Positions 726 to 16,850 of a stretch of 64,000 nt of DNA are shown one piece after another. The first letter of the stretch is position 1; each line of letters starts with the position of its first letter. The DNA is from Callorhinchus milii. Lineage: Eukaryota. The stretch is from contig NW_024704742.1 in NCBI RefSeq assembly GCF_018977255.1, forward strand, positions 121,646,001 through 121,710,000. The letters are read 5' to 3'. The position numbers and the translations under genes are program-made. The notes below the pieces were generated by a model, which saw only the letters and a program-made list of their open reading frames with translations, was not told where the DNA came from and did no database searches.

Positions 726-864
726 ATTTCCTCCATCATCTCCTCTTAAGCCCTATCCAAAAAAGACAACACGTTTAGTCCGTGACTTAAATCCCATATT
801 TCCAGACTGGAATGACTACGATGTTCCAAGACAGGGTCCTGTCCTGGTGAGACCTGTAATTTTG
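726..864 (+). CDS. DEPDC1B: DEPDC1B coding exon ([14 protein letters not shown]...VRPVIL)
   Basis: Acceptor tttttttctttag|A at 725/726; donor TTG|gtaaga at 864/865; 139 nt. Confidence 0.93.
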
Positions 865-3800
865 GTAAGACACGTTGAAATACTGTAATTTGTAGATATA
901 TGATTTGTATTGTTCAGTAGCGATTGAAATACATTAAGGGCATAAAGTGCACTCGTGATTTTTTTCTGCTACAAAGATAGCTTTGAGCAGCATATTGTAG
1001 GGTTCTGGATCATAGATGGATCTACCCGTTTTCAATTTTAATTAATTAAAAATTATTTATCGAGTCTTTCAATTTTCTGCAGAACCGAGGAAAATGAATT
1101 CCTATTGTTGACAATTTTAAAAAATTGTTTTGAACTACAAAAATGGCTGACAACGTGTGTGACATTGCCTGCGCAAAGCGCACATGTGCAGTGTGATATC
1201 TATTGTGCCTTCACATCCTGGAGGTTGGCCATTTTTGTTGTCAGAGATTACTAGCCATATATTTTTTCAGATGTTTTTCAATTTTTATTATTGGGGAAAT
1301 TTTTTAATCAAATTGTATATTTCTCTTTTCTATAATTAAAGAACATAAAAACTATAGAATTAAGACATGTACAATTATTATTACTAGAAATGGTAAAAAT
1401 GGGTAAAATATACACAAACATATTAAAAGTTCTGTTTCACTAATTATGTTTGTTTCGCGCTACAATATATTAAACTGAATGCTGAAGATGTAAAACGTGC
1501 ATCGTCTTGCATTAAATATGGGATTTTAAATTGTAAAATGCTTTATCTTTGGGGGCCCCAAATAATTATGCCTGGAAGACTTTGTTTTACCTGAATTTAT
1601 TGGCTTTGGTTGCAATGGCTCATAAAAACTATACAGTTTCTTATGCCACAAATAACCTGAATAGGAAAAGTCGACTATAATGAAATTTCACTTTTGTGGA
1701 TAGCTGGCATTTCTGTTGTACACACTACTCAAAGCTTTATGTAGCATTTTTGATATCCATTCATCTCTATCATGAGATCTCTGCCATGCAAAACACTCAA
1801 GTATCAAAGATTGGATTAATTACAATTTAAAAAGTAATTATCTTAGTCTATTTAAGTAAGTAGTACTTGATGTTTGATATGTAGTAATGGAACCACTTGA
1901 TTGTGTTTCCCTGTCTGATATATAGACATCAATGTATGAATTAGTTATTTCTGCTTTGTGTCAATCTTCAATGTTGTGTGAAAATTCTTACCGAATAGTA
2001 CATATCTAATCCTGTTAAATTCTCATTAAATTCTTAACGTTAATTTTGTGTGTATACAAACCACTTAATTCAATAAATGTTGTTTGAAAGTGTGTTGGAA
2101 GCTCTGATTTAACAGTAGCATAATGTACTTTGTGATGTATTGTAAGTTTCTACATTCACTTGACTGTTTTTATTGCGATGTGTTCTAGAATGCTGATTTG
2201 TGGCAGAAGCGGCACAGCATTGCAATTGGGGAAGTACCCGAGTGTCGAATAATATACAGGAAAGAGATTTCAAAAGGAACTATGGAAGAAATTTGGAAAT
2301 CAATTACACTATCAAAGTAGGTGAAACGTGTTTGTGCTTTCTCTTCCCCGAGTTTCCCCACTTCTCATTTCCAAAATAAATAACATTAGATTCCTAAAAA
2401 TCATGATTGTATAGTGTGACTTTTAATGGGGCCATTTACTCAAATGCTGCTTTATTCCCCATATGTTGTATATTCTATTTTATAGCTTAATACAGTGAAA
2501 TTCTGTTAATTGAATATCAGATAATTGAATAATTTGGTTTATTCAATAGAATTTAGAAATCCCAAATCCCTTCTGCACGTTTAATCTAAGAATACAGATT
2601 GGGTAATTTGAATACCGGGTATATGAATAATTTGGTTTATTGAACAATTTTCTCGTGTCTGCCCGTATAAAACCATTAATCTTAGTACGGATAAACACGT
2701 AATCCCAAATCATTACCTTCATGGTATAGCGAGAACATCATCAGCTTCTTCTCCTCCTTCCCCCTCATGTCCTCTCGCTCCCTGGAGAGGTCGTTGGCGA
2801 TTGACTGGTTCCACACGTGAATGAAGATGCGTCCGAATGGGGAGAGTGTTTCCAGTTACAGTGTGGTTGGAGGCTGCATGCCTCAATCTCTGGGAGATGA
2901 GTCTCCTTATGTTTAGTCTAGTTAAATGAATAGTTTGGTTTACTGAATAATTTTTGCTGCCAAATTCAGTCTTCGATTAGCAAAACTTCATTGTAAATTG
3001 TATATTAACAACAACAACTTGCAATTATATAGTGCCCTCCACGCAGGGTGGTGTCTCAGCGTGCTTAATATCATTTCTAAAGAGGGTATTTCTTTTCAAT
3101 GGCTCCCACTTTCTCACATTGTTGCTGACATCACTCCCACTGTGATCCTCAAGTCTCCTTCCAACCTTTCATTGAGGCGCTGACCAAGTCTGCTTCCTTT
3201 AACCTTCTTAGCTCCACTATTACTTCATTCCCAACACAGCCAAAACTCTCACCCATGTCTTTTGTCGTGGTCAGGGGTCACTTTCAGACCCAATTTTTTC
3301 CACCTTGGGTTGATACCCAAATCTGGCCTAGAACCTGGAGTTCAACCAACTGAACCAAATTGATACACATGATCAGCTTGTTGATCCTGTTCTAAAATTG
3401 TTTTCTTGGTTCATTGGAAGAGTTAGCTGAAATACCTATTTTATATTTGCTCTAAATGGTAACTGTGTATTTACTATAAGAGCAATATATTTTTCCTCAA
3501 AATGCAAGAATACTCAAAGTTCTATTGTTCAAATTTCTTTTGACTTCCAGGTTGCAGAAGATCCTAGGGCTGGATTCCCTGGATGGAGTGCTTGATGCTA
3601 AACTAGTCAACCCGAAACACATCATGTATAATGTACATTATATTAATAAGCAAGGAATAGTAATTCTAGAGAACAAATCAGGTATCTTTGTGTTCATTGC
3701 TTTTCACAATTGTTTAATTTTAAAAATCCTTTTTTTTGGTGTGACATATTCGGAAACGATGCTTAAGAGTATCCAAAACAAACTGAGAATTCCATGCATC

Positions 3801-6800
3801 TCACATATGCATGGGAATTATAGAGATTGATTATTGGAATGGAATGCGCGCACTCCCTAGAGGAATGCATCCTGCTTAATTCTGGAAAGCATTAGGTGCA
3901 GATTGCCAGGATCCAAGGCTTGGGGACCCCAGAGTGTGCATTGGGTCTAACCAGCTAAAACCGCATACCTTGCCATTGATAGCACTGTTTGGCAAACTTT
4001 GCCGCTGCTTATCCAGCTACGATCTTCTTACCCGTTAGGACTTTGACTTGCAAAAGCCCTATGGTTAAGGTGGTCCTACCCTTGCTTGCTGACAATAGCT
4101 GTGTGGGAGAATTCCCTACCCCCAGTGACAGGAGCTGTGTGGGAAAATTCCCTACCCCCAGTGACAGGAGCTGTGTGGGAGCACCCAGTGTCTGTCCTTC
4201 CAAGTCCTTCCGATGAGCCAAGCTGGCTGTGCTGTCATCACCAGTGCGTGCCATGGAGTACTGTGAGTCTGCCTGGCTCAGGATCCGGACTACCAAGACC
4301 ACCACAGGGGGTTGGTTCAAACACCTTGGAGACAGTTCAGCTCAAAGAGACGCTGATTACACCCCAGGAGGACTTTAAGATTGCTCCTTTTTAGGATTTA
4401 ACTCTTAATTTGTAATGTCTAAAAAAGGGCCTAAATAATTTTCCTTTTCCAAACAGAAGAACTTCCACATTGGGTTCTGTCAGCAATGAGGTGTCTTGCA
4501 AACTGTAAGTATCAAGCATCCTTTATAAAAGATTTTGTAGATATGAACCATAACTATATGGTACACCTACACACTGAGGAATTAGTTTGCTCAGTACACG
4601 CAATCCATCAACTTAGTTGAAATTGCAATTGGGAATACATAAAACCATTTGCGATTTGGCAAGAAGTAATAAAATAAGCATGAGAGTTAAGGAACTCAGC
4701 ACTCTGCTTGCTTTCATATTGATCTACAATGCAGCCAAGTATCTGCTAAATTTCTTAGTTACTGTTGAGTTTCTAGATTGGAGAAAGATGCAATATAGTC
4801 ATATCTGATATTACTATTTTTCATATAGCAAATTGATGACTGTGTTTGTTTAAAGGATTTTTATATTTAGATATTTGTTTATTTATAAATAGCCTTACAA
4901 TCAGAAATAGATTCTGAAAATAAATTAAGGATGTCTTAATAAATTAAGTAGTTGTTGGAATATTCTTCACACATTCCAGAAACAGCCTTGATGATTGAAG
5001 GGGAAACAAAAAAAAAAAGTCTATGATGTTAAACAGCACAACTTCATCTCCAATTAAATAACCTGAAAGGACCAAGAATAATCTAGATCCATCAGTACTC
5101 CCGTCTGCTTCACATTCAAAGGTTGACTAGAAAGTGTCTTTTTATCAGAGTTTATAATCTTCCTAGATCTGCAATAATTGAATAAACCACCCTGACTTTC
5201 AACATGGTAACAAATCAGATCATTCAAGCAGCATTCTCAGGAGATATATTAGCTGTGATAAACCTAAATAAAAAAAAGTCAAGCGTCAGTATGCTTGTGG
5301 CACAGGCAATTCTTGGTGTTGCTCTTTCACAGAATACAAGGTGCCCTTTTCAGCCTTATCTTTGTCCTTTGATGTTTACTCAAAACATCTCAGGTTCTAA
5401 ATTCAGATACTGGGAGGTTTTCCTTGTTACTGGCTGAGACAACTTACCTTTCTGTTATGGGTTAATCAGGTAAAGCAAATATGATTTATCCATGAAGATG
5501 GTCCTAACTTTAGAAAATGGAAAGTACTTTTTGAGTAAGCAAGAAGGATCCTTAAGCCGTTGTGGATCCTGTCTGTACTTCTTTTGATATTGTTTTATTA
5601 CCTCACAATTGAAATTCTCAATACAATGCAAAATTAAATTTGTATAGCACCTTTCATGTCGATGTGATCAATCAATAGTTGATTTGATGTATTTATATAC
5701 TTCATTTGCCCTACTTTAACATAGCTCCACAGTTACAGAAATTTGCGCACAACAATATCCCATAAGCAGCATTAAGTGAGTGACCAATTTTCTTTGGGAT
5801 TATTGGCCAAGGGCAACATGACAAACTCCCTTTTCTTTTGGAATAGTGCCACAGGATCTTTAACATCCAGCTGAAGAGGTAGATGGGACCTTGGTTTAAC
5901 ATTTCATTTGAAGAATGGTACTTCTGAAAATGCAGCACACTCCTCCAGCACTATACTGAAGTGTCATGAATTATGCATGAAACGTCAGGGGCTTTATTCA
6001 TAAGCCATTTCAAGCCTGTGTTCTTGCTCTTCACAAAATAATGATTGCTCGTCCTTATTTCAACAATTGATTAGTTGAATGCTTTAATGCAATTACTATT
6101 TGTTTTTGTGTGTTTTCCTCACCTAGGGCCAAATGGAAGTGATCTAAACCAGCCTATGTATCCAGGATTTGAAAGAGATGTGTTCAAAACCATAGCAGAT
6201 TACTTTCAGAAGTTAAAGGAGCCATTGCTCACATTTGAGTTTTATGAACTCTTCATCAATATATTAGGTGAGTTTTTAAACCATCAATTTGTCTTACAGT
6301 AAACATTTTGTAAGTATTGAATTGAAGAAATCTTGTTTGTCGTTATGGTGAATGTATGATACTTTTTTTTATTCTTGAACATCTTTGGGGGTCATAAAAA
6401 TACTTGAATCAGGACACTTCTATGTTGTTTTTCCAAGGGGCATTAGGGAGATGATTTCGGTGAAGCTGGCCAATTCTTTAGAAATTGCAAGTAAACTGGC
6501 AAAGGAAATTGTGATTTTTTCACAAATTGTTCAGGCCTACGACGCAGAGACCAACTTTGCTGGTACTAACTGTAGATTCATATTTGTCATTCTTTACTTA
6601 GATCTTTCAACCTAGCTGGTAGCCATAGCAATCCTAAAAATGAGAGTCTTAGAGCTTCATTTGTGGGGGTTCTAACCTCCGATGGTGCCTTCCACTGACA
6701 TTTTACAATAAATGGAAGAGGTTCATTGAGAGAGCCGTTGCTCAAGAACCAAGGTCTTTGAGAGAGCTGTTGCCTCCCAGCGTTGCTTTTTTCTCTCCTC

Positions 6801-9800
6801 TCACTCCTTCCATGAACCCCTCCAATCAGGTTTCCGTGCTGCCCACAGTACGGAAACTGCTCTGGTCAAGGTCACAAACGACATCCTGACCATGTGTGAC
6901 CAGGGCTCCCTCTGCCTCCTCATCCTCCTCGACCTCTCCGCCGCCTTTGACACCGTAGACCATTCAGTCCTCCTTCACCTCCTCTCCTCCCACCTCAACC
7001 TTCAAGGTTCTGTCCTTGATTGGTTCAGGTCCTCCTTTCACACCGCCTCCACTTCGTCGCGGCAAACGGTTTCTCCTCTAGCCCCTGCACTGTCTCGTGC
7101 AGTGTTCCTCAGGGCTCTGTCCTCAGTTCCCTCCTTTTTACCCTCTACATGCTCCCCCTGTGATGTCATCTGCAGACATAGGATAAATTTCCACGGATGA
7201 CACCAAACTCTACCTCTCTGCCTTCACCCTGAACTCCAGGACTACTGACGTCCTGACCGACTGCCTGTCCGACATCAAGTCCTGGACGAGGGCCAACTTT
7301 CTCCAACTGAACGTCAGCAAGACCGAGGCCCTCCTGATTGGCTTGCGCCAGCGCCTCTGCACTCAACCTCACTAAGCCAGTCAGGAACCTGGTGTCTTGT
7401 TTGACCCTGAACTTTCCTTTCTCCCATGACCATGACCGGTGCTACCTACTACCACCTCCTCAACATTGCCACTGCCTCACCCCTCAGGCTGCCGAAACCG
7501 TCACCCACGCATTCGTCATATCAAGGCTTGATTACGGGAACTCCCTCCTCATCGGCCTTACGAATTCTTCCTTTCACAAGCTGCAGATCATCCAAAATTC
7601 TGCAGCCCGTGTACTCTCACGCACCAGGCTCCGTGATCCCATCACTCCCACCCTCGCCCGACTCCACTGGCTCCCAATCCCTTAGAGGATCGAGTTCAAG
7701 ATCCTCGTCCTCACCTTTAAGGCCATCCATGGCCTTGCCCCCTCCTACCTCTCTGACCTGCTAACTCCCTACCAACCTGTCCACTCCCTCCGCTGATCAG
7801 GCTCCGGCCTGCTCCATGTCTCCCGCCCGACCCACCCTACCATCGGTAGCCGGGCTTTCAGCCTCTCTGCCCCAACACTCTGGAACTCCATCCCATGGCT
7901 CTTCACCTCGCTTCTTCCCTTGCATCCTTGAAGGCCGGTCTCAAGACCCTTCTCTTAGACCGTGCCTTTGGTCTCCCTCCCACCTCTCTGCCTTCCCTCA
8001 CCCCTACACCACCCCTCCCCCATGCTCAGGCCCTGACATCTGATTGTTCAGCGCTTTGGGACGTCCTCCCAACGTGAAAGGCGCTCTACAAATGTAATTT
8101 CGTTGTTGTTGTATCCCTAGATATTGGACTCAAGTCTTTAATTCTATTTTGATACCCTTATTTCCTCTAAGGAGACCCACACTTGATCAGCTTAGAGGAA
8201 CTCTTGCTGTTGATTTCTCAACTACTGACTTTGCTCAGCCTTTTCTCTCAATTTGTTCTTTATCCACTCCAATCATTTTCCTCTACTAATCATCCTACTC
8301 TATCCACTGTTATGTTAATGAATCCATTCTATTCATCAATCTCTTTCAGATCACATTGCCTTTATTCCTGAGCAATGCATTGGCTGAGTCTTTAAAAATT
8401 GATTTACTCTATGCTCTTTGACAGGACAATACAAGTACTTTTTTCTCCTTGTCTTAGAAATCAAGCTATCACTTGCCATCTCTTACACTAATATATATGA
8501 ATCATTTTGCTAACAATTGATTAATGGTTATTTTGCTAACAATTGATAAATGCTAACTTACACTAATATACAATAGTCATTTTGCTAACAATTGATCAAT
8601 GGTTATTTTGCTAACAATTGATTAATGCTAACAATTGATTAATGGTTATTTTGACGGGACAATACAAGTACTTTTTTATCCTTGTCTTAGAAATCAAGCT
8701 ATCACTTGCCACCTCTTACACTAATATGCAATAATAATAATAATAATAATAATCCTTGCATTTGATATAGCGCTTTTCACGTCGGGAGGACGTCCCAAAG
8801 CGCTTCACAGAACACACTGTAAAGTGAATTGACTGTATATTTGTGGGCGAACGCGGCAGCCAATTGCGCACAGCAATGTCCCACAAACAGTCGTAGATTG
8901 AAAATGACCAATTTATTATTGGTTTTTTTGGTTTTGGAGGGATTATTATTAGGCTCTGTGTGGAGTAAGGAAACTTGCCCAAGGTTTCGCCCTCTGCCTG
9001 GAATTGAACTCAGGTCTCTCACTTGCAAAGCGAGTGCTCTAACCACTGAGCTACAGGACTCCACATTTTGCTAACAATTGATTAATAGATCTATTCCTGA
9101 ACCCGTGTTGGTACATACTGTGCCACCAGAAATTATTTATGACCAACAAGATATACTTAAACACAATCTTTCCCAAGACACTTAGACTTCAAATTCACTT
9201 AACCTTCCCAATATTGTACAACTTATAGAATTGTAAAATCTAAGTGTGGCATCACATAACAACTCCATCCTGACATATCTTATTCTGTTCTATTCTATTC
9301 TTTCTAACCCTGATATATGTTAAATTTGACCTTTTACATAGCATTAAAGTGCAATAAAGTTTGTCCAGAGCATGTTATAAATGGAATAGTTATGCAAACA
9401 TTGAAGTATTGTCTGCTGTAGCACAATGGTTGTAATGGCAACTGTTACCGTGCTATCTGAAGAAGTTTAGAGTTATTAACCTTTTCTAGAGGATTAATAG
9501 AACTAATACATTATTCAGTACTTATGAAGAAGAGGCAATCGATGTAAAGGGTTCTGAGGAAGGTACAGTATCATGCAAAGATTAACTTAATTCAAAAACT
9601 ACGGTAACTACTGCAGAAAATAAGTTGGCTCCTTTACAGGATGATCACAATTGTCAATAAATTCTGCTTAAATAGCAATAATCTGATAAATGGAGTGCGT
9701 TTCTTTCATCTGAGTTATCCATTGAACATTGGTTCACATGTTTTATTTTCATGTTCCTTTTTTGTGCATTCATTCCAACTTTTTGGCCTGTCTTTTGAGA

Positions 9801-12800
9801 TGAGTCGTGTTAACATCTTTAATTATTTCTCTGTTCAGATTAAGTTTGTATCGTTTGTCGTATCTTATGATTTGCATGCTTTCAAATATCATAATTGAGG
9901 GAGTCAACTAACCACATGTCACTTTCTCTTCAATGTACATATCCATTGTCATGTTTCAGTCCAATTGTAACATTAATTGTTTTTTGTTACCTATCATCTT
10001 GTTGCACTTCATGCAGCACTCTCAGGGTTTATTACACTTCCCTGCCAAACTTCCAAAACTGAAGAACGACAAAGGGAACCACTTTGTATACAAGAATCAT
10101 TGACTCGTGACACAGCAAGCCAGGCCATACTCTCCTCGTTTATTTCAATTGAAAATCTTATGTTAAGTCTGGGTAGAAAAGAAGAATTTTCAGAATATTC
10201 TCCTGAAATCTTACAACAGTCATCACATCGAACTCTAGAATTGAAGTGTTGCATGCAGTCTTTCAAAATTATGAATGACCAATGTGTAAAAAAAGGTCAT
10301 GGGAGCCTATCTAGCTTAGTGCATCCTGAAGTTCATAATCATTTTATTAACAACCAATTGAGGGACAGATCCATTTCTCAACCTTCGTTGATGCACACTT
10401 CCACAAATGACCTGGGTCAACAAGATGCTACAAACCCTTTGATGGAAAGCAAGGGTGATGTCAAGATGAATCGAGGCAGTAGCCTTGCAAATCTCAGACA
10501 ACTGAAAGACGAGGCTGTAAATCCCTGGGTCTCCACATATCGGTATTGCTCATTAGAAGACCTTAACATGACAGTAAATGGAAATAAAACTGAAAGACAT
10601 CCTTCTTCCTTCTTTAATTCAAATACAAAGTTGGTGTTTAAAAAAGAAAAGCTGGAAAATGAGAAGTCGCAAACTTGCCTAGTTCAGCAAAGAAAGCAGT
10701 CATTGTGTAGTTTATCATCAAAATGGAAAGATTCTGGATTTGTTCGAACTGAGTCAAATTCTCAGTGTGAAGATAGATTGAATCGTGTCTACTCTGAACC
10801 AATAAAAGAAGGAAAAGGAGAAAATTATAGATGTAACCAAAGAAAAGAACATCAGTGGTTTAAATCTTCAACAAAGATTCAATGTTGTAATGATCAGTGT
10901 TTCAAGCAATCGACAATTGATCTAGCTGAGAATGGATCGGCTTTCCAATCTATTGCTCACTGTTTCAATAGACTAAAGTCTAGCTCTCCAAGCAAGGTGT
11001 TAAAGGATTTGAATAATATTCAAAATACTTGGGCAGGAGACCTACCTTCTAAGGCTAGTTCAGGGAGTGATCTTGATAATCCATACACCTTTTCTACTAA
11101 CCCACGTGGAGCTGCTCTCCAAGTACTGCTCAAGCCTAGCAGCATGCCAAGTAAGCACTCTTCAATATGTACAGATGATTCCTGTCTGGTTTGCTTTCAG
11201 GAATGATCTGCTAGCTTTTGTTGAATTGGTCTTGGTGGCTGGTGGCTTATGCTTTCTCATGATCTACTTCTATTAATTTGCTTTAAGTATAAAGGTACAA
11301 TGGGATTATGAACAAAACAGTGTGTGGCAGTCTGCTTTGAATTATACAAATCAAACAAAAGCTACTGATTAAAGATGGTGTGTCATAAAGGTAGGATGAT
11401 TGTACGGGTTTATATGGCGAAGGATTTGCTGATGAATTCTGTGCTTTTTTAAAATATTTTGCTGAAACCATTTTCCTTTTTGGTCTACCAATTTTTTTTA
11501 AACTGAAAGATTTATAAATGGGCTTGACATTTATTATTTTTGGAGATGATAAGGGGAGTTACAGTTGTAGTTGTTGTTTTTACTTTAACCATGATTCTCT
11601 TTGGAAACCTAGGTCTTTTGCAACAACAGCATGTTGGTATCGAAGCACTGCAGGTTTGTTGCCTCCTCTTACCTCCGGAAAATCGTCGAAAGCTTCAGCT
11701 TCTGATGAGAATGATGGCTCGAATTGTTCAAAATACTGAAATGCCAGCTCTACACAATGCTATTGGAGCTAGAATGCTGGTGAGTTTAATAATATTCCTT
11801 ATATTTGATATAGAGCCTTTCACATCGGGAAGACTTCTAAAGGCAGTTCATAGGATACGCTGTAAAATGTGACTATGTTATAAGTGGAGGCACCAATGTC
11901 CCAAAAGATGATTCATTTTAATTTGGGGAGATTCTTGGCCAGGGCACCAGGAGAAACTCCTTTGATGGCTTCACATTCAACTTACTTGTGGCTCCTAAAG
12001 TTTGAATTGGGCAATAGTTTGCTGGACATGTACCTTTCAGTGTAGTGTAGCGCCACAATCTACACACTCTCACTGTAACGAGTTGCCTTATAATGGGTGT
12101 AACAATGAGCTGTAAATCAAAATCTTCATGGGAATTATCTTGGTCAGTTTTTAAAATATTTTTGTAGGTTCTCCACCTCACATCAAGTACTGTTTTATGG
12201 AAATCTTTTTTTTTATACTCACCCCAAAGTATTTCCAGTAGGAAAGTATATTAAGTATAAAGACTTATTAAGTGGTGAGGAGACAGGGGTGGCAGATATA
12301 GAAACTTTTATGTAGCTTGTTAATATCTCTTCAAATGTATCTTAATTACATTGTTTTTTTTAATAGATCCATGAGTCAAACTAGAGGAACAGGTGCAAAT
12401 CAGCTTCAATTTATTTCTTAATACATAGGTTTATATAGAGAAATAACAACTAACATATTCTTAAAACATTATTGCAGATGGTTCAAACTTTCTCTCGTTG
12501 TATCCTCTGTTCCGAGGATGAGGTGGATCTTGATGAGTTGCTAGCAGCTAGACTAGTCAGCTTTATGATGGATCATTACCAGGATGTTCTAAGAATTCCT
12601 GACCATCTGCAGGGTGCAGTAGAGGAACACTTGGCTCACCTCCGAAGAGTTCAGGTAGATTGTTTAATGGATGACTATTAATGATGCCTAAATGTCACTA
12701 AAATGATGACTTTTATTTTGCTTCAGTAATTCTAAAAATTTACTCCATTATTGACCACCTGCAATGAATGTAAAATCTGCAGCTTCAGAAGGAAATAAGT

Positions 12801-14339
12801 CACTCCTAGGCAGCTGCAAATTGTTTGAATTCAGTTGTAGAGGTTACAACTAAGTCTTTCTTCCTTTTCTTACCAAATCACTACCAGATAAAGTACCAAG
12901 GCGCTGATGCTGATGCTACACTAGCTTCCTACTCTTGCCATCAGATTATTGCTGAGGAATTTAAGGAACCAAGAACAAGTGCCCAAAAATCAATTGCTTG
13001 TTTGCTGGAAGAAATAATAATGGACAAAAGCACGTCTGTCAAAGAGAAAAAGAGGAAACTAAAGCAGGTAGAATGAATTAAGGATTCTGTCACATTTGTT
13101 TTACAACTGTACAATAATCTTTACAAATAGATATTATGTATTGAATATTAAATATCTATTGAATAGTTTATGTTTTATTGTGGAGTCCTGTAGCTCAGTG
13201 GTTAGAGCACTCGCTTTGCAAGTGAGAGACCTGAGTTCAATTCCAGGCAGAGGGCGAAACCTTGGGCAAGTTTCCTTACTCCACACGCCTAATAATAATC
13301 CCTCCAAAAAACAAAAACAATAATTAAATTGGCCATTTTCAATCTACGACTGTTTGTGGGACATTGCTGTGCGCAATTGGCTGCCGCGTTCGCCCACAAA
13401 TATACAGTCAATTCACTTTACAGTGTGTTCTGTGAAGCGCTTTGGGACGTCCTCCCGACGTGAAAAGCGCTATATCAAATGCAAGGATTATTATTATTAT
13501 TATTATTGCCTTAACATTACTGTAAATACTTTGCTCCAGATTTTCCACAATTGCAGCAAACTTATATAAACTGCAACCTTGGATCCAACATGATATTTTA
13601 TTTAATCTGCCACCAAGAAGTTGCTTGGAATCTAAAATCCTCCTGGCGTGATGTAAATGTAAATTTGTTCTTGTGAAGGTTAACCTTCATGGCTCGGGCT
13701 AGTGAATAATACCAATGCTGTACGAATATTCAGAAATGTTCAACATAAGAGCTGTTCCTCATTTGTTTATCCTCGTGTTTATATTGTGTGAGCCTATCAC
13801 CCCACTAGCTCCGCACCCTCCAAAGGATCGAGTCCAAGATTCTTGTGTTTAAATCCTACAACTCTATCAACTGGCCTAGTTCATGTCCCCGTTCAATCTG
13901 CCAACTGTTGGCAGACAACCTATCAGCCATTCTGCTTCACTCTCTGGAATTCCATTTTGAAGTCCCTTTGACTTGTGCCCCCAACCTACCTCAAAGTTAC
14001 CTCTGACCATGTTTTGGGTCATGTTTCCCCCTCACTAAACTTTTTGGTTCCATCTCCGAGCTTGGGACATAGCCAGCAATGTGGAGTGCTTTGAGATGTC
14101 CTGCTGATGTGAATGATGTAATATGAATATGATTTTATTGTATTGTTTCATTTTTTAAATTGCTTTTTTTGCTTCAGTTTCAGAAATCTTATCCTGACGT
14201 ATATCAAAATCGATTTCCAACAACCGAGAGTGAGGCACTGCTGTTTCCTGAAAAACCAAAACTCAAACCACAGCTCATGTTTTTCACCATGAAGAAGTCA
14301 TTCCAGCCATTTCAACGAACCCGGAGTTTTCGGATGTAA
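726..14339 (+). CDS. DEPDC1B: DEP domain-containing protein 1B, 5'-partial multi-exon CDS: join(726..864,2189..2316,3551..3681,4457..4504,6127..6267,[10017..11150 cassette],11613..11779,12478..12654,12888..13067,14178..14339)
   Basis: Hand-spliced at GT-AG junctions with consistent phases. The translation includes [74 protein letters not shown] and ends [12 protein letters not shown], which I recognise as the DEPDC1B (not DEPDC1A) C-terminus. Confidence 0.96.
2189..2316 (+). CDS. DEPDC1B: DEPDC1B coding exon ([20 protein letters not shown]...WKSITLSK)
   Basis: Acceptor tgttctag|; donor AA|gtaggt; 128 nt; frame continuous with neighbours. Confidence 0.93.
2493..2993. mobile_element. Tigger/pogo-like non-autonomous DNA transposon (MITE)
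   Basis: TA on both sides (2491-2492, 2994-2995). Imperfect TIRs: left cagtgaaattctgttaattgaa, right reverse complement caatgaagttttgctaatcgaa. Three internal tgaata(a/g)tttggttta repeats. Confidence 0.7.
3551..3681 (+). CDS. DEPDC1B: DEPDC1B coding exon ([15 protein letters not shown]...VILENKS)
   Basis: Acceptor ttgacttccag|; donor G|gtatct; 131 nt. Confidence 0.93.
3835..4325. repeat. Longest copy of an unclassified interspersed repeat; contains a 36-nt tandem duplication (4097-4181)
   Basis: Related segments at ~17800-18030 (opposite strand), ~23935-24275, ~26254-26490 and ~51500-51692. Confidence 0.75.
4457..4504 (+). CDS. DEPDC1B: DEPDC1B coding exon ([16 protein letters not shown])
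   Basis: Acceptor ttttccaaacag|; donor T|gtaagt; 48 nt. Confidence 0.93.
5620..5975 (-). mobile_element. Older DeuSINE-type SINE, diverged
   Basis: Reverse complement of the Deu-type body (ggatctttaacatccagctgaagaggtagatgggacc on +). Confidence 0.75.
6127..6267 (+). CDS. DEPDC1B: DEPDC1B coding exon ([27 protein letters not shown]...FINIL), start of RhoGAP-like region
   Basis: Acceptor ttcctcacctag|; donor G|gtgagt; 141 nt. Confidence 0.94.
6749..8111 (+). mobile_element. L2 LINE, 5'-truncated (RT remnants, 3' UTR, GTT tail)
   Basis: Peptides [25 protein letters not shown] and LHWLPI; tail cagcgctttgggacgtcctcccaacgtgaaaggcgc...gttgttgttg. Confidence 0.93.
8417..8729. repeat. Local complex tandem duplication (~78-nt unit twice plus GCTAACAATTGAT repeats)
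   Basis: ttgac(a/g)ggacaatacaagtac...cttacactaatat at ~8417-8495 and ~8650-8727; gctaacaattgat five times here and once at ~9070. Confidence 0.85.
8730..9064 (-). mobile_element. Young tRNA-Ala SINE (short variant)
   Basis: Nearly identical to the 13180-13507 copy; long ATT tail. Confidence 0.93.
10017..11150 (+). CDS. DEPDC1B: Large in-frame cassette exon of DEPDC1B (378 codons), resembling the large alternative exon of DEPDC1A
   Basis: Lies inside the 409-codon ORF 9977-11206. Acceptor atgcag|CA at 10016/10017 and donor CCAA|gtaagc at 11150/11151 are both phase 1, matching the flanking exons. Motifs [27 protein letters not shown] and [10 protein letters not shown] resemble the DEPDC1A insert as I recall it. 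Confidence 0.8.
11613..11779 (+). CDS. DEPDC1B: DEPDC1B coding exon ([37 protein letters not shown]...GARML)
   Basis: Acceptor aaacctag|; donor CTG|gtgagt; 167 nt. Confidence 0.95.
12478..12654 (+). CDS. DEPDC1B: DEPDC1B coding exon ([26 protein letters not shown]...HLRRVQ)
   Basis: Acceptor attgcag|; donor CAG|gtagat; 177 nt. Confidence 0.95.
12888..13067 (+). CDS. DEPDC1B: DEPDC1B coding exon (IKYQGADAD...KEKKRKLKQ)
   Basis: Acceptor ctaccag| after a pyrimidine tract; donor CAG|gtagaa; 180 nt. Confidence 0.93.
13180..13507 (+). mobile_element. Young tRNA-Ala SINE (short variant)
   Basis: Head gtggagtcctgtagctcagtggttagagcactcgctttgcaagtgagag (TGC anticodon); L2-like tail with ATT repeats. 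Confidence 0.93.
13800..14130 (+). mobile_element. Degraded L2 3' fragment
   Basis: aggatcgagtccaagattcttg and ctctggaattcc motifs; decayed tail. Confidence 0.6.
14178..14339 (+). CDS. DEPDC1B: DEPDC1B last coding exon ([28 protein letters not shown]...FQRTRSFRM*)
   Basis: Acceptor tttttttgcttcag|; stop TAA at 14337-14339. Confidence 0.95.
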
Positions 14340-16850
14340 AATCTTATTGCTGAGGATTGCTGCTGCTGCCACTAGAAGATTGTCTCTAAATGTCCTCAAT
14401 TTTCAATTATGTCAGGAGATTTGGAGCTGTTGAATGCTGAAAATATCCATATTGCTGTATCTGAAAATATCCATGTTACTGTGTATGACCCCTTGCAATG
14501 TTATGTAGATTGTAGTTTCCAGAATTCTTGTTGCGTGGTAGATGTGCAAGGTTAATTGAGTCTGAGACTTAATGAGAAAATATTCACTGGATACTGCACA
14601 AAAACATTTTAGTCTGATTTGTATCCATTAAGTGGTAAGGTCAAACCTTTTATAAGAGATTTAAAACTAAGGCAGAAATGGAATTTTTTTTGAGTATTGT
14701 ATGATTATTGCTGTAGTTACTGAGAAATAAATAATCGAGTTGGTGTGTTAGGGGTCAGCTGTTATTTACTGAATCTTGTGGGTTTTTTAAGCAGGACTTG
14801 ACCATAGCTAGATAAGAGTTAGTTATACCATAGTTATTTGTTTTATGTTACCTGTACTGTGTTATGTTTGGACCAGATTTGCTTCAATGGATGTTGAATT
14901 AAATTCTATTGCTTTGGCTGACAGAATGGACAATCCTATTGTTCTTACCTAAAGAAGAGCAGAGTAAACGATTGCCATGTGAAGTTTAGATAAAAGCTTA
15001 AATTTGGTATTGGTGTATAAACATCCAATGTCAATATTGCCTAGATGTGTCACAAGAGGCTCGATTCTGAGGTCATGATGAACTAAGTCAATGTCTGAAT
15101 TGAGGCTTCAGTGACTCTAGCTATTTCTCTTCAGCAATAAAATTAACGTAAATCATCAATTTATTGATTATTCCAGGGATTACGAGTGACCTTTATTGGT
15201 ATTAACTGACCATAATGCCCATCTCTGTTCAGGAAATGTTGCACCATTGGAAGGTGAGTGACAGGAGTAAAGATTTTTTTTTGCTCTGCTCTTGAGTGCT
15301 TAAAGTGGTAGAGAAATGTGTATGTTATCACTCAATTTGATTTCAACACCACCAGCTTTAATGGCCTTTTATTTTCTCAATACACTAGTTGTTGACGCTC
15401 AGAATAAAAGACCCTCCAGGTTCCTGGTCTGAACCTACAATTCATTTATCTTGAACCAGCCTTTATTATTGTAGAGTGTAATTTTATTGTTGGTCTGAAA
15501 CATTTCTTTGTGTTTCTTCCTTTCTCCTCCATCTAACTTTGCAAAACCCGTTTGCCTTTACTTTTTCTGTACAAAAGCCCCAAATAAAGATTGACCTCTG
15601 GGCCTGGGAAACCACTGTGCAGTAGCTTAATGTAAATAGTTTTAACTTTCAATGTTAATTACCACCATGTTGTGTGCAAAAGTGATTTTTAAAAATTAGT
15701 TTACTACTTGATAACCATTTTTCCTCTTTTGAGAGTTTGTACAGCTTATAACATTTACTGTATTTTTAATTTGGAGCTGCAAATTCTCTGTATTTGAAGC
15801 CAGTAACTAAATGGTGCCATCTACTGTCATCAGTTGCCCCCACTTCATATAAGTTGTTTTATTACTTTTATCGTCTTGTGTATTTTCATTTTATGTGTTA
15901 TCTCAGAAGTAGCCTACATAATTTATACCATATTTTGATAATAATCCTTGTATTTGATATTGCGCCTTATGTCTTCGAGACGTCTCACATAATATACTGT
16001 AAAGTGAATTGAGTGTACATTTTCTGGGCGATCCGTGGCAGTCAATTGCACACAGCAGTATCCCACAAACAGTCGTGGATTGAGTAACCAAATTATTATG
16101 ATTTTTTTAAAAAAAGGATTATGACCCCTAGAAAAGCGATCCACCAATTGATTAATACCGGGTTCCTACTTACTGTTGGGTGAACAGAGGCGTGTGGAGT
16201 AAGGAAACTTGCCCAAAGTTTTGCCCTGCCCAGGAATTGAGCCCAGATACTCTCGCTTGAGGGCGAGTGCTCTAAACGCTAAGCTATAGGACTAATTTCA
16301 CATAACAATATGGTGTAAAATGTGAGTGAATGGAGGATTCTTGTAAACTTGTCTTTATATGATTTATTTCTTTTTCTGCACTGTCTGCAGTCAAAAGGTT
16401 AATCAATTCTGAAACTTCTGTCGTTTCTGAGAAAGGTATTAGATGGTGGGCAAAATATACAATACAAATTAAATATGGATTAATTCCACAGTTCCTTTTC
16501 TTTGTGGGGAAAGCACACTCCTAACTGTGGCTGAGATTGGGGGATACTCAGCCCTGGAGGGAAGAGTAAGTTCTGTATCTCTGAATCAGTCAATTCACAG
16601 ACGTCTTCTATAATTCATTATAATTCTTGTGTTTGATAGGGCCTTATGCCTTAACACATCATCAAAACCTCAAAGATTTACTGTAAAATGTTTGGACTAC
16701 TTGTAGTTGAATAATACATTATGTTGATGCAACAAATGTAAGATTTAAAAAAAATCGATGGCACTGTCAACTGGATTGTGTTTTTCATGTAACACCTGAA
16801 GACTTGTTCTCCAATAAAGTCCTTGAACAAATGTTATTTCTCAAACTCTT
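14340..16850 (+). other. DEPDC1B: Probable DEPDC1B 3' UTR with candidate polyadenylation signals
   Basis: AATAAA at 14726, 15136, 15403, 15583 and 16813. The true 3' end cannot be fixed from sequence alone. Confidence 0.5.
15938..16293 (-). mobile_element. tRNA-Ala SINE (long variant)
   Basis: Contains the internal segment gcctctgttcacccaacagtaagtaggaacccgg (minus strand) that the short variants lack. Confidence 0.9.

Follow-up and report, generated by a model that had tools for sequence, protein, structure and literature searches.

A described counterpart of the exon reported here is exon 8 of DEPDC1A. Human DEPDC1 comes in two splice forms, V1 with 811 amino acids encoded by 12 exons and V2 with 527 amino acids, which lacks exon 8 (PMC11409430). 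RT-PCR confirmed exon 8 as a cassette exon; DEPDC1A is usually modelled in its long form, and in human muscle inclusion exceeds skipping with ratios of 2.4-3.8 (PMC5803615). Both isoforms peak in mitosis (PMC4577292). Human DEPDC1A is a cancer target and a cancer-testis antigen, and the accessible portions of the literature assign no difference to its isoforms.

Human DEPDC1B has 529 amino acids (PMC6985657), and the exon structure of zebrafish depdc1b is said to match that of the human gene (PMC4250264). In both species the described protein corresponds to a skipped form, consisting of a DEP domain and a RhoGAP-like domain; a long isoform is not mentioned in the accessible text of these reports (PMC4250264, PMC6985657, PMC7613278). 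According to the same excerpts DEPDC1B is a pseudo-RhoGAP and a PTPRF/RhoA de-adhesion factor (PMC4250264, PMC6985657, PMC7613278), whose RhoGAP-like domain has no GAP activity and works through binding of PTPRF (PMC4250264).

The cassette exon of C. milii DEPDC1B

We analysed a window of 64,000 nucleotides of the Callorhinchus milii genome (C1:121646001-121710000). Between exons 7 and 9 of the DEPDC1B gene in this window (Table 1) lies a real, ancient exon that is unannotated in C. milii. An earlier note on this DNA, made from the sequence alone, had proposed an open exon with phase-1 acceptor and donor at this place, and a direct check of the sequence reproduced its coordinates, phases and open frame exactly. 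The stretch of 1134 nt has no in-frame stop. Its acceptor reads ...catgcag/C and its donor CAA/gtaagc, and the phase of 1 at both ends is that of the donor after 6267 and of the acceptor before 11613. The remaining five frames of the same stretch contain 14-41 stops each, and 20,000 base-shuffled versions averaged 25.5 stops and never had fewer than 9. The longest stop-free frames of seven intronic or downstream control stretches were 70-156 codons, the 156-codon case being a LINE piece. The pyrimidine content of the acceptor falls in the range of the other acceptors of the gene (about 52-78%). A second in-frame AG 9 nt further 3' would offer an alternative start at 10026; the homologs agree with the first AG (axolotl, sterlet and caecilians read ALSGF). 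The donor is near consensus and in phase. If it were left unused, translation would continue for 18 more codons until a stop whose last base is 11206.

The nine window exons joined without the cassette yielded exactly the last 423 amino acids of XP_007890345.1, a C. milii protein of 528 amino acids. The C. milii models of DEPDC1B are short only, and the 528-residue model omits the cassette. With the cassette included the frame stayed open throughout, giving 801 amino acids within the window and 906 for the full protein. Pfam placed a DEP domain at residues 27-106 and a RhoGAP domain at 272-343 of XP_007890345.1; the RhoGAP match spans the exon junction at residue 301.

Table 1. Positions of the gene parts and insert blocks discussed in the text; plain numbers count from the first letter of the window.
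Feature	Position	Strand	Remarks
DEPDC1B exons 1, 2	C1:121635827-121635874 and C1:121645345-121645611		upstream of window
DEPDC1B exon 3	726..864	+	
DEPDC1B exon 4	2189..2316	+	
DEPDC1B exon 5	3551..3681	+	
DEPDC1B exon 6	4457..4504	+	
DEPDC1B exon 7	6127..6267	+	constitutive, 5' of cassette; ends ...FINIL + G
3' splice site of cassette	9987..10016	+	pyrimidine-rich, ends in CAG; 70% pyrimidine at -30..-4
DEPDC1B cassette exon	10017..11150	+	prospective coding exon 8 of 12; 378 codons, phase 1/1
Insert blocks 1 and 2 (LSGF...; SIENLMLSL)	10019..10180	+	colinear with DEPDC1A LCGY... and KSTECLLLSL
Best-conserved block (K.N.G.SL.NL ... [15 protein letters not shown])	10463..10567	+	matches DEPDC1A GGSCQNL ... 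RCYSLEG
R-x-x-S-x-x-x-hydrophobic site RKQSLCSL	10682..10714	+	at this place in 6/6 DEPDC1B inserts
5' splice site of cassette, gtaagca	11151..11157	+	sole GTRAG in 10017-11260
DEPDC1B exon 9	11613..11779	+	constitutive, 3' of cassette; LLQQQH...
DEPDC1B exon 10	12478..12654	+	
DEPDC1B exon 11	12888..13067	+	
DEPDC1B exon 12, coding part to stop	14178..14339	+	...RTRSFRM, stop
C. milii DEPDC1A exon 8	C5:3180182-3181273		

The gene is DEPDC1B and does not group with DEPDC1A. A tree built without the cassette columns separated 16 DEPDC1B from 11 DEPDC1A proteins with 100% ultrafast bootstrap and placed the window gene among the former (27 chosen proteins, columns of the short form only, midpoint root without an outgroup), and the gene neighbourhood agrees. 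A search of the C. milii genome with exon 9 had two matches, the window locus and the DEPDC1A locus on C5. At 14 kb upstream of the window gene there is an exon that resembles the elongase-like portion of a Polypterus fusion model, and RPE65-family exons (Pfam PF03055) adjoin the C5 gene. PDE4 exons are found at about 0.7 Mb from DEPDC1B and about 0.4 Mb from DEPDC1A. We take these neighbours to be ELOVL7, upstream of DEPDC1B, and PDE4D and PDE4B, near the paralogs. The PDE4 linkage common to both paralogs would fit an origin by vertebrate genome duplication. Two further PDE4 loci were noted, at C29:3264267-3269833 and C21:8386532-8392541; the exon-9 search had no DEPDC1 match on either contig, which is consistent with the loss of two of four duplicates. 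Downstream of the DEPDC1B stop the window has a long AT-rich 3' region (14340-16830) with an AATAAA at about 16814, and a shallow search of the window from 17 to 64 kb identified no further protein-coding exon.

Orthologous inserts and RNA evidence

The exon is not peculiar to the C. milii lineage. A search with the cassette peptide against 6,201 candidates gave a single match, isoform X1 of axolotl DEPDC1B (857 amino acids, E 4.6e-6); this search matched no long DEPDC1B protein of C. milii. The axolotl long protein then served as query, the best 120 of its 1,063 matches being used, and look-ups of clusters added more. The insert was present in 10 of 157 fetched DEPDC1B-like records from at least six species: axolotl, the caecilians Rhinatrema and Geotrypetes, sterlet, Chinese sturgeon and the bowfin Amia calva. 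In three of them long and short models coexist, namely axolotl (XP_069483427.1 with 857 amino acids; short model 529), sterlet (XP_058846209.1/XP_058868555.1 with 869; short model 531) and Rhinatrema (XP_029432488.1 with 792, and XP_029432498.1; short model 527). Geotrypetes seraphini carries the insert as last exon in XP_033786526.1 and three more models. The insert is also present in the DEPDC1B model MGH0186245.1 of Chinese sturgeon (Acipenser sinensis). The bowfin protein MBN3300503.1 is labelled DEP1A and groups with DEPDC1B in the tree; it was probably misnamed owing to the insert. Other long models under the name "DEPDC1B" (gar P0114, rabbit P0099, P0117 and P0264) were set aside, their extra sequence being unrelated to the insert, as was that of Polypterus (P0134), a fusion of neighbours whose extra sequence is likewise unrelated.

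These long forms, all automated predictions, share with the C. milii exon the junction NIL/ALSG and the conserved blocks at an identity of 29-35%. The C. milii cassette is the longest with its 378 codons compared to about 265-340 in the other DEPDC1B inserts. Identity to the C. milii insert was 35% for sterlet, 33% for Rhinatrema, 30% for bowfin and 29% for axolotl, with local-score z values of 20-38 and none of 200 shuffles reaching the score in any case; the shuffled baseline was 21% (maximum 25). Matched pairs of DEPDC1A inserts, in the order sterlet, caecilian, bowfin and axolotl, had 39, 33, 39 and 33%, the caecilian, urodele, bowfin and sturgeon sequences coming from related, not identical, species. 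The DEPDC1B identities are near those of the matched DEPDC1A pairs and the DEPDC1B exon has thus diverged little more than its DEPDC1A counterpart. Judging from the sequences, conservation of this kind across the split of cartilaginous and bony fish would be difficult to account for if there were no long-term selection.

The C. milii copy extends the range of the exon in DEPDC1B to cartilaginous fish. It does not represent a new kind of system, as long DEPDC1B forms are already in automated annotations. Hence the claim of the earlier note that a long DEPDC1B would be undescribed holds for C. milii and for the searched literature, and does not hold for databases with automated models in six species. 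A literature search that scarcely covered subscription journals turned up nothing on long isoforms of DEPDC1B or on how this exon evolved. The insert was not in the fetched records of amniotes, frogs, teleosts, sharks, rays, gar, bichir, coelacanth and lungfish. If the absence from teleosts, frogs and amniotes is real, at least three separate losses would be required. Yet the C. milii models lack the exon although the genome keeps it intact, so that absence from models does not show loss. The gene model of C. milii, a key outgroup genome, is hereby corrected.

Four runs presumed to be RNA were placed on window positions 3400-13150, and two of them, X1 and X6 from one study, gave spliced contigs. 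The skip junction 6267>11613 was seen in a contig of 1,945 nt with a depth of 9.8 in run X1 and in a contig of 505 nt in run X6. Run X7 covered other DEPDC1B exons with neither junction among the matches listed, and run X8 had no exon piece among them. Two contigs of run X1 fall inside the cassette, at 10674-10842 (depth 2.5) and 10913-11110 (depth 5.1); neither touches a splice site, and they are not clearly above the intronic cover of that run (up to 3.0). The first 555 nt of the cassette had no contig cover in run X1. Consequently, of the long/short switch proposed in the earlier note the skipping branch was observed in two of four runs, and the inclusion junctions were absent among the matches listed, from contigs that lose rare forms and junction tables crowded by repeats.

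Taken together we consider it probable that the DEPDC1B cassette is a functional ancestral cassette exon. It would descend, together with exon 8 of DEPDC1A, from the gene before duplication and would still be constrained. The short DEPDC1B presumably dominates in C. milii, and the 906-residue form would be a minor product, probably restricted to certain tissues or stages.

A recently silenced relic, i.e. a true ortholog that is no longer spliced in C. milii and has a frame not yet broken, appears unlikely. The C. milii genome evolves slowly, on which this explanation leans, and it draws on the skip junction being the only one seen and on the short C. milii models. Against it stand the 378 open codons, the canonical splice sites, the intact blocks and the identity of 35% to sterlet over the full length, as well as the two RNA contigs within the cassette.

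We regard it as quite improbable that the cassette is an alternative last exon, where reading through the donor to the early stop would yield a protein of DEP domain and half a GAP domain, or an RNA targeted for decay that lowers DEPDC1B. All four insert-bearing Geotrypetes models (X1, X4, X5 and X6) end soon after the exon, about 20 residues past the splice point of Rhinatrema and without the second GAP half; in the window a stop follows 18 codons after the donor, and the RNA contigs covering the cassette sit in its 3' half. Yet the models of axolotl, sterlet, Rhinatrema, Chinese sturgeon and bowfin splice in frame to exon 9, and the donor in the window keeps the phase and is close to consensus.

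Relation to DEPDC1A exon 8

The C. milii DEPDC1A gene has an exon of 1092 nt (364 codons, phase 1/1) at the same junction, included in a model of 891 amino acids, and the donors of both paralogs read CAA/gtaag. Like the DEPDC1B cassette, DEPDC1A exon 8 is exon 8 of 12, lies at the same site in phase 1/1, is similar in length and has three colinear blocks in common with it. Unlike DEPDC1A, C. milii DEPDC1B has been seen only in the skipped form, and the overall identity of the inserts is near background. The frame of the C. milii DEPDC1A exon continues far past its donor into a repeat, and a UniRef model (P0139) differs in having another, shorter insert.

Single comparisons of the two inserts were weak: BLASTP of the C. 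milii pair gave an E of 0.025, and 2 of 25 single pairs beat all 200 shuffles. A comparison of profiles, built from 5 DEPDC1B and 28 non-mammalian DEPDC1A inserts, yielded an E of 6.3e-7 with a score of 54.8 over one block of 53 columns. None of 90 column shuffles reached this score (mean 13.3, maximum 30), and a reversed profile scored 16.2. The match fell to an E of 2.2e-5 after trimming the alignments by 12 columns and was 4.5e-8 in global mode. The profile match together with the common site, phase and exon number makes a shared origin the simplest reading. This upholds the homology to the DEPDC1A insert that the earlier note had proposed. Its further claim that the exon and its switch between long and short forms are older than the duplication is, on the strength of this homology, most likely correct; the sequences suggest that the switch probably predates the split of DEPDC1A and DEPDC1B, which would date the exon-8 switch of DEPDC1A accordingly and provide a case of splice forms partitioned after gene duplication.

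The blocks themselves were compared with 28 non-mammalian DEPDC1A inserts. Invariant in five DEPDC1B inserts are LSG, S..S.EN..L, K...G.S...L, NPW.STYR..S and R..S. NPWVSTYR is specific to the DEPDC1B inserts, and PVAEITxKP to those of DEPDC1A. Profiles of three DEPDC1A blocks (1, 2 and 3a) picked the colinear place with matching spacing in all five DEPDC1B inserts; the profile of the RCYSLE block alone did so in two of five. A fourth block, QSTIDLAEN in C. milii compared to STMELSEN in DEPDC1A, scored in C. milii with 2 of 300 shuffles doing as well, as one of 30 tests, and the four other DEPDC1B inserts tested had no counterpart of QSTIDLAEN. Of the four DEPDC1A-type motifs expected in the same order, three colinear blocks were thus recovered and the fourth is confined to C. 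milii. The human DEPDC1A motifs used for orientation in that expectation include VVCGYITV, RCYSLEG and CKSTIELSEN.

The profile of the five DEPDC1B inserts was also run against 1.84 billion representatives. It hit two proteins, both DEPDC1B, and no DEPDC1A, cyclostome or invertebrate protein at a library-wide E of 0.001; the negatives are weakened by the use of 50% clusters, whose representative may be a short form. This result, the weak pairwise scores and a best Atlas score of 0.76, which carries little information, would suit a separate origin of the two inserts at a permissive loop, with a likeness due to convergent short motifs. Such an origin is highly improbable given the shared junction, phase and exon number, the similar length, the matching order and spacing of three blocks in five of five DEPDC1B inserts and the profile E of 6.3e-7. 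LINE and SINE pieces abound in these introns, but a chance open frame or a transposon remnant is a negligible explanation, refuted by the orthology, as the cassette has no repeat-level depth, no Pfam hit and significant similarity to DEPDC1B inserts only.

Conserved motifs and a possible role of the insert

Pfam found no family on the C. milii DEPDC1B or DEPDC1A insert, and in long DEPDC1B forms its RhoGAP match is reduced to the downstream half. In the axolotl long form as modelled by AlphaFold (alignment of 46 sequences, pTM 0.46) residues 311-624 have a pLDDT below 50; the flanking helices are predicted with confidence, and order persists through roughly the first ten residues of the insert. 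Foldseek alone returned no significant GAP match (best E 0.19). On re-examination of its candidates, residues 232-722 of the model aligned as a single domain with RhoGAP domains of solved structure, that of ARHGAP15 giving Z 13.4 and rmsd 3.3 over 151 residues, which is near the caution level for helical folds. The model indicates that inclusion likely adds a disordered loop between two RhoGAP-like helices with the fold retained.

Against expected counts of 3.4 in six DEPDC1B inserts and 14 in 28 DEPDC1A inserts, R-x-x-S-x-x-x-[LIMVF] occurred 21 and 60 times, respectively, the pattern having been picked after viewing the alignment of mutually related sequences. Two sites of this pattern are present in six of six DEPDC1B inserts, one of which aligns with the RCYSLE site of DEPDC1A. 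R-x-x-S-x-x-x-hydrophobic is a pattern of the AMPK/MARK family and of the 14-3-3 type. Comparison of the paralogs reduces the roughly 300 residues of disordered sequence to a set of three short blocks plus a serine site common to both. A role as APC/C degron, for which the accessible part of 10.1101/387670 was the lead, was dropped with no KEN or D-box in the C. milii insert.

The loop may act via a handful of conserved short motifs, most likely sites for basophilic kinases, and these sites would tune localisation or partner binding of a catalytically dead GAP scaffold in the cell cycle. From the sequence motifs we put this phospho-switch forward tentatively, as one possible function of the insert. 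LET-99 of C. elegans is related to DEPDC1. Its RhoGAP-like region is degenerate, and, as far as the available text of the report goes, it is kept off the posterior cortex by PAR-1 (MARK) and PAR-5 (14-3-3) (PMC5576900). As a scaffold controlled by PAR-1 and PAR-5, LET-99 would fit the motif type of the insert. The widest scenario combines these elements: the switch would be ancestral in vertebrate DEPDC1 and kept in both duplicates for more than 400 million years, DEPDC1A favoring inclusion and DEPDC1B skipping, with repeated independent losses from DEPDC1B (in teleosts, frogs, amniotes and perhaps sharks), and the exon would be a MARK/14-3-3-type module for phospho-localisation akin to the control of LET-99. 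As a whole we find it doubtful. If it were true, the residues common to both paralogs would pinpoint the role of the human DEPDC1A long form.

Finally, repeats surround the exon. The intron before the cassette contains a decayed fragment of a LINE reverse transcriptase (window 6700-8100), and the window has many similar LINE fragments between 32 and 44 kb and between 51 and 55 kb. The cassette and exons 9-11 are flanked by an inverted pair of SINE-like copies that are nearly identical (8733-9090 and 13154-13507; 96% over 202 nt and 88% over 146 nt). If these copies paired in the pre-mRNA, they could influence splicing or promote circularisation.
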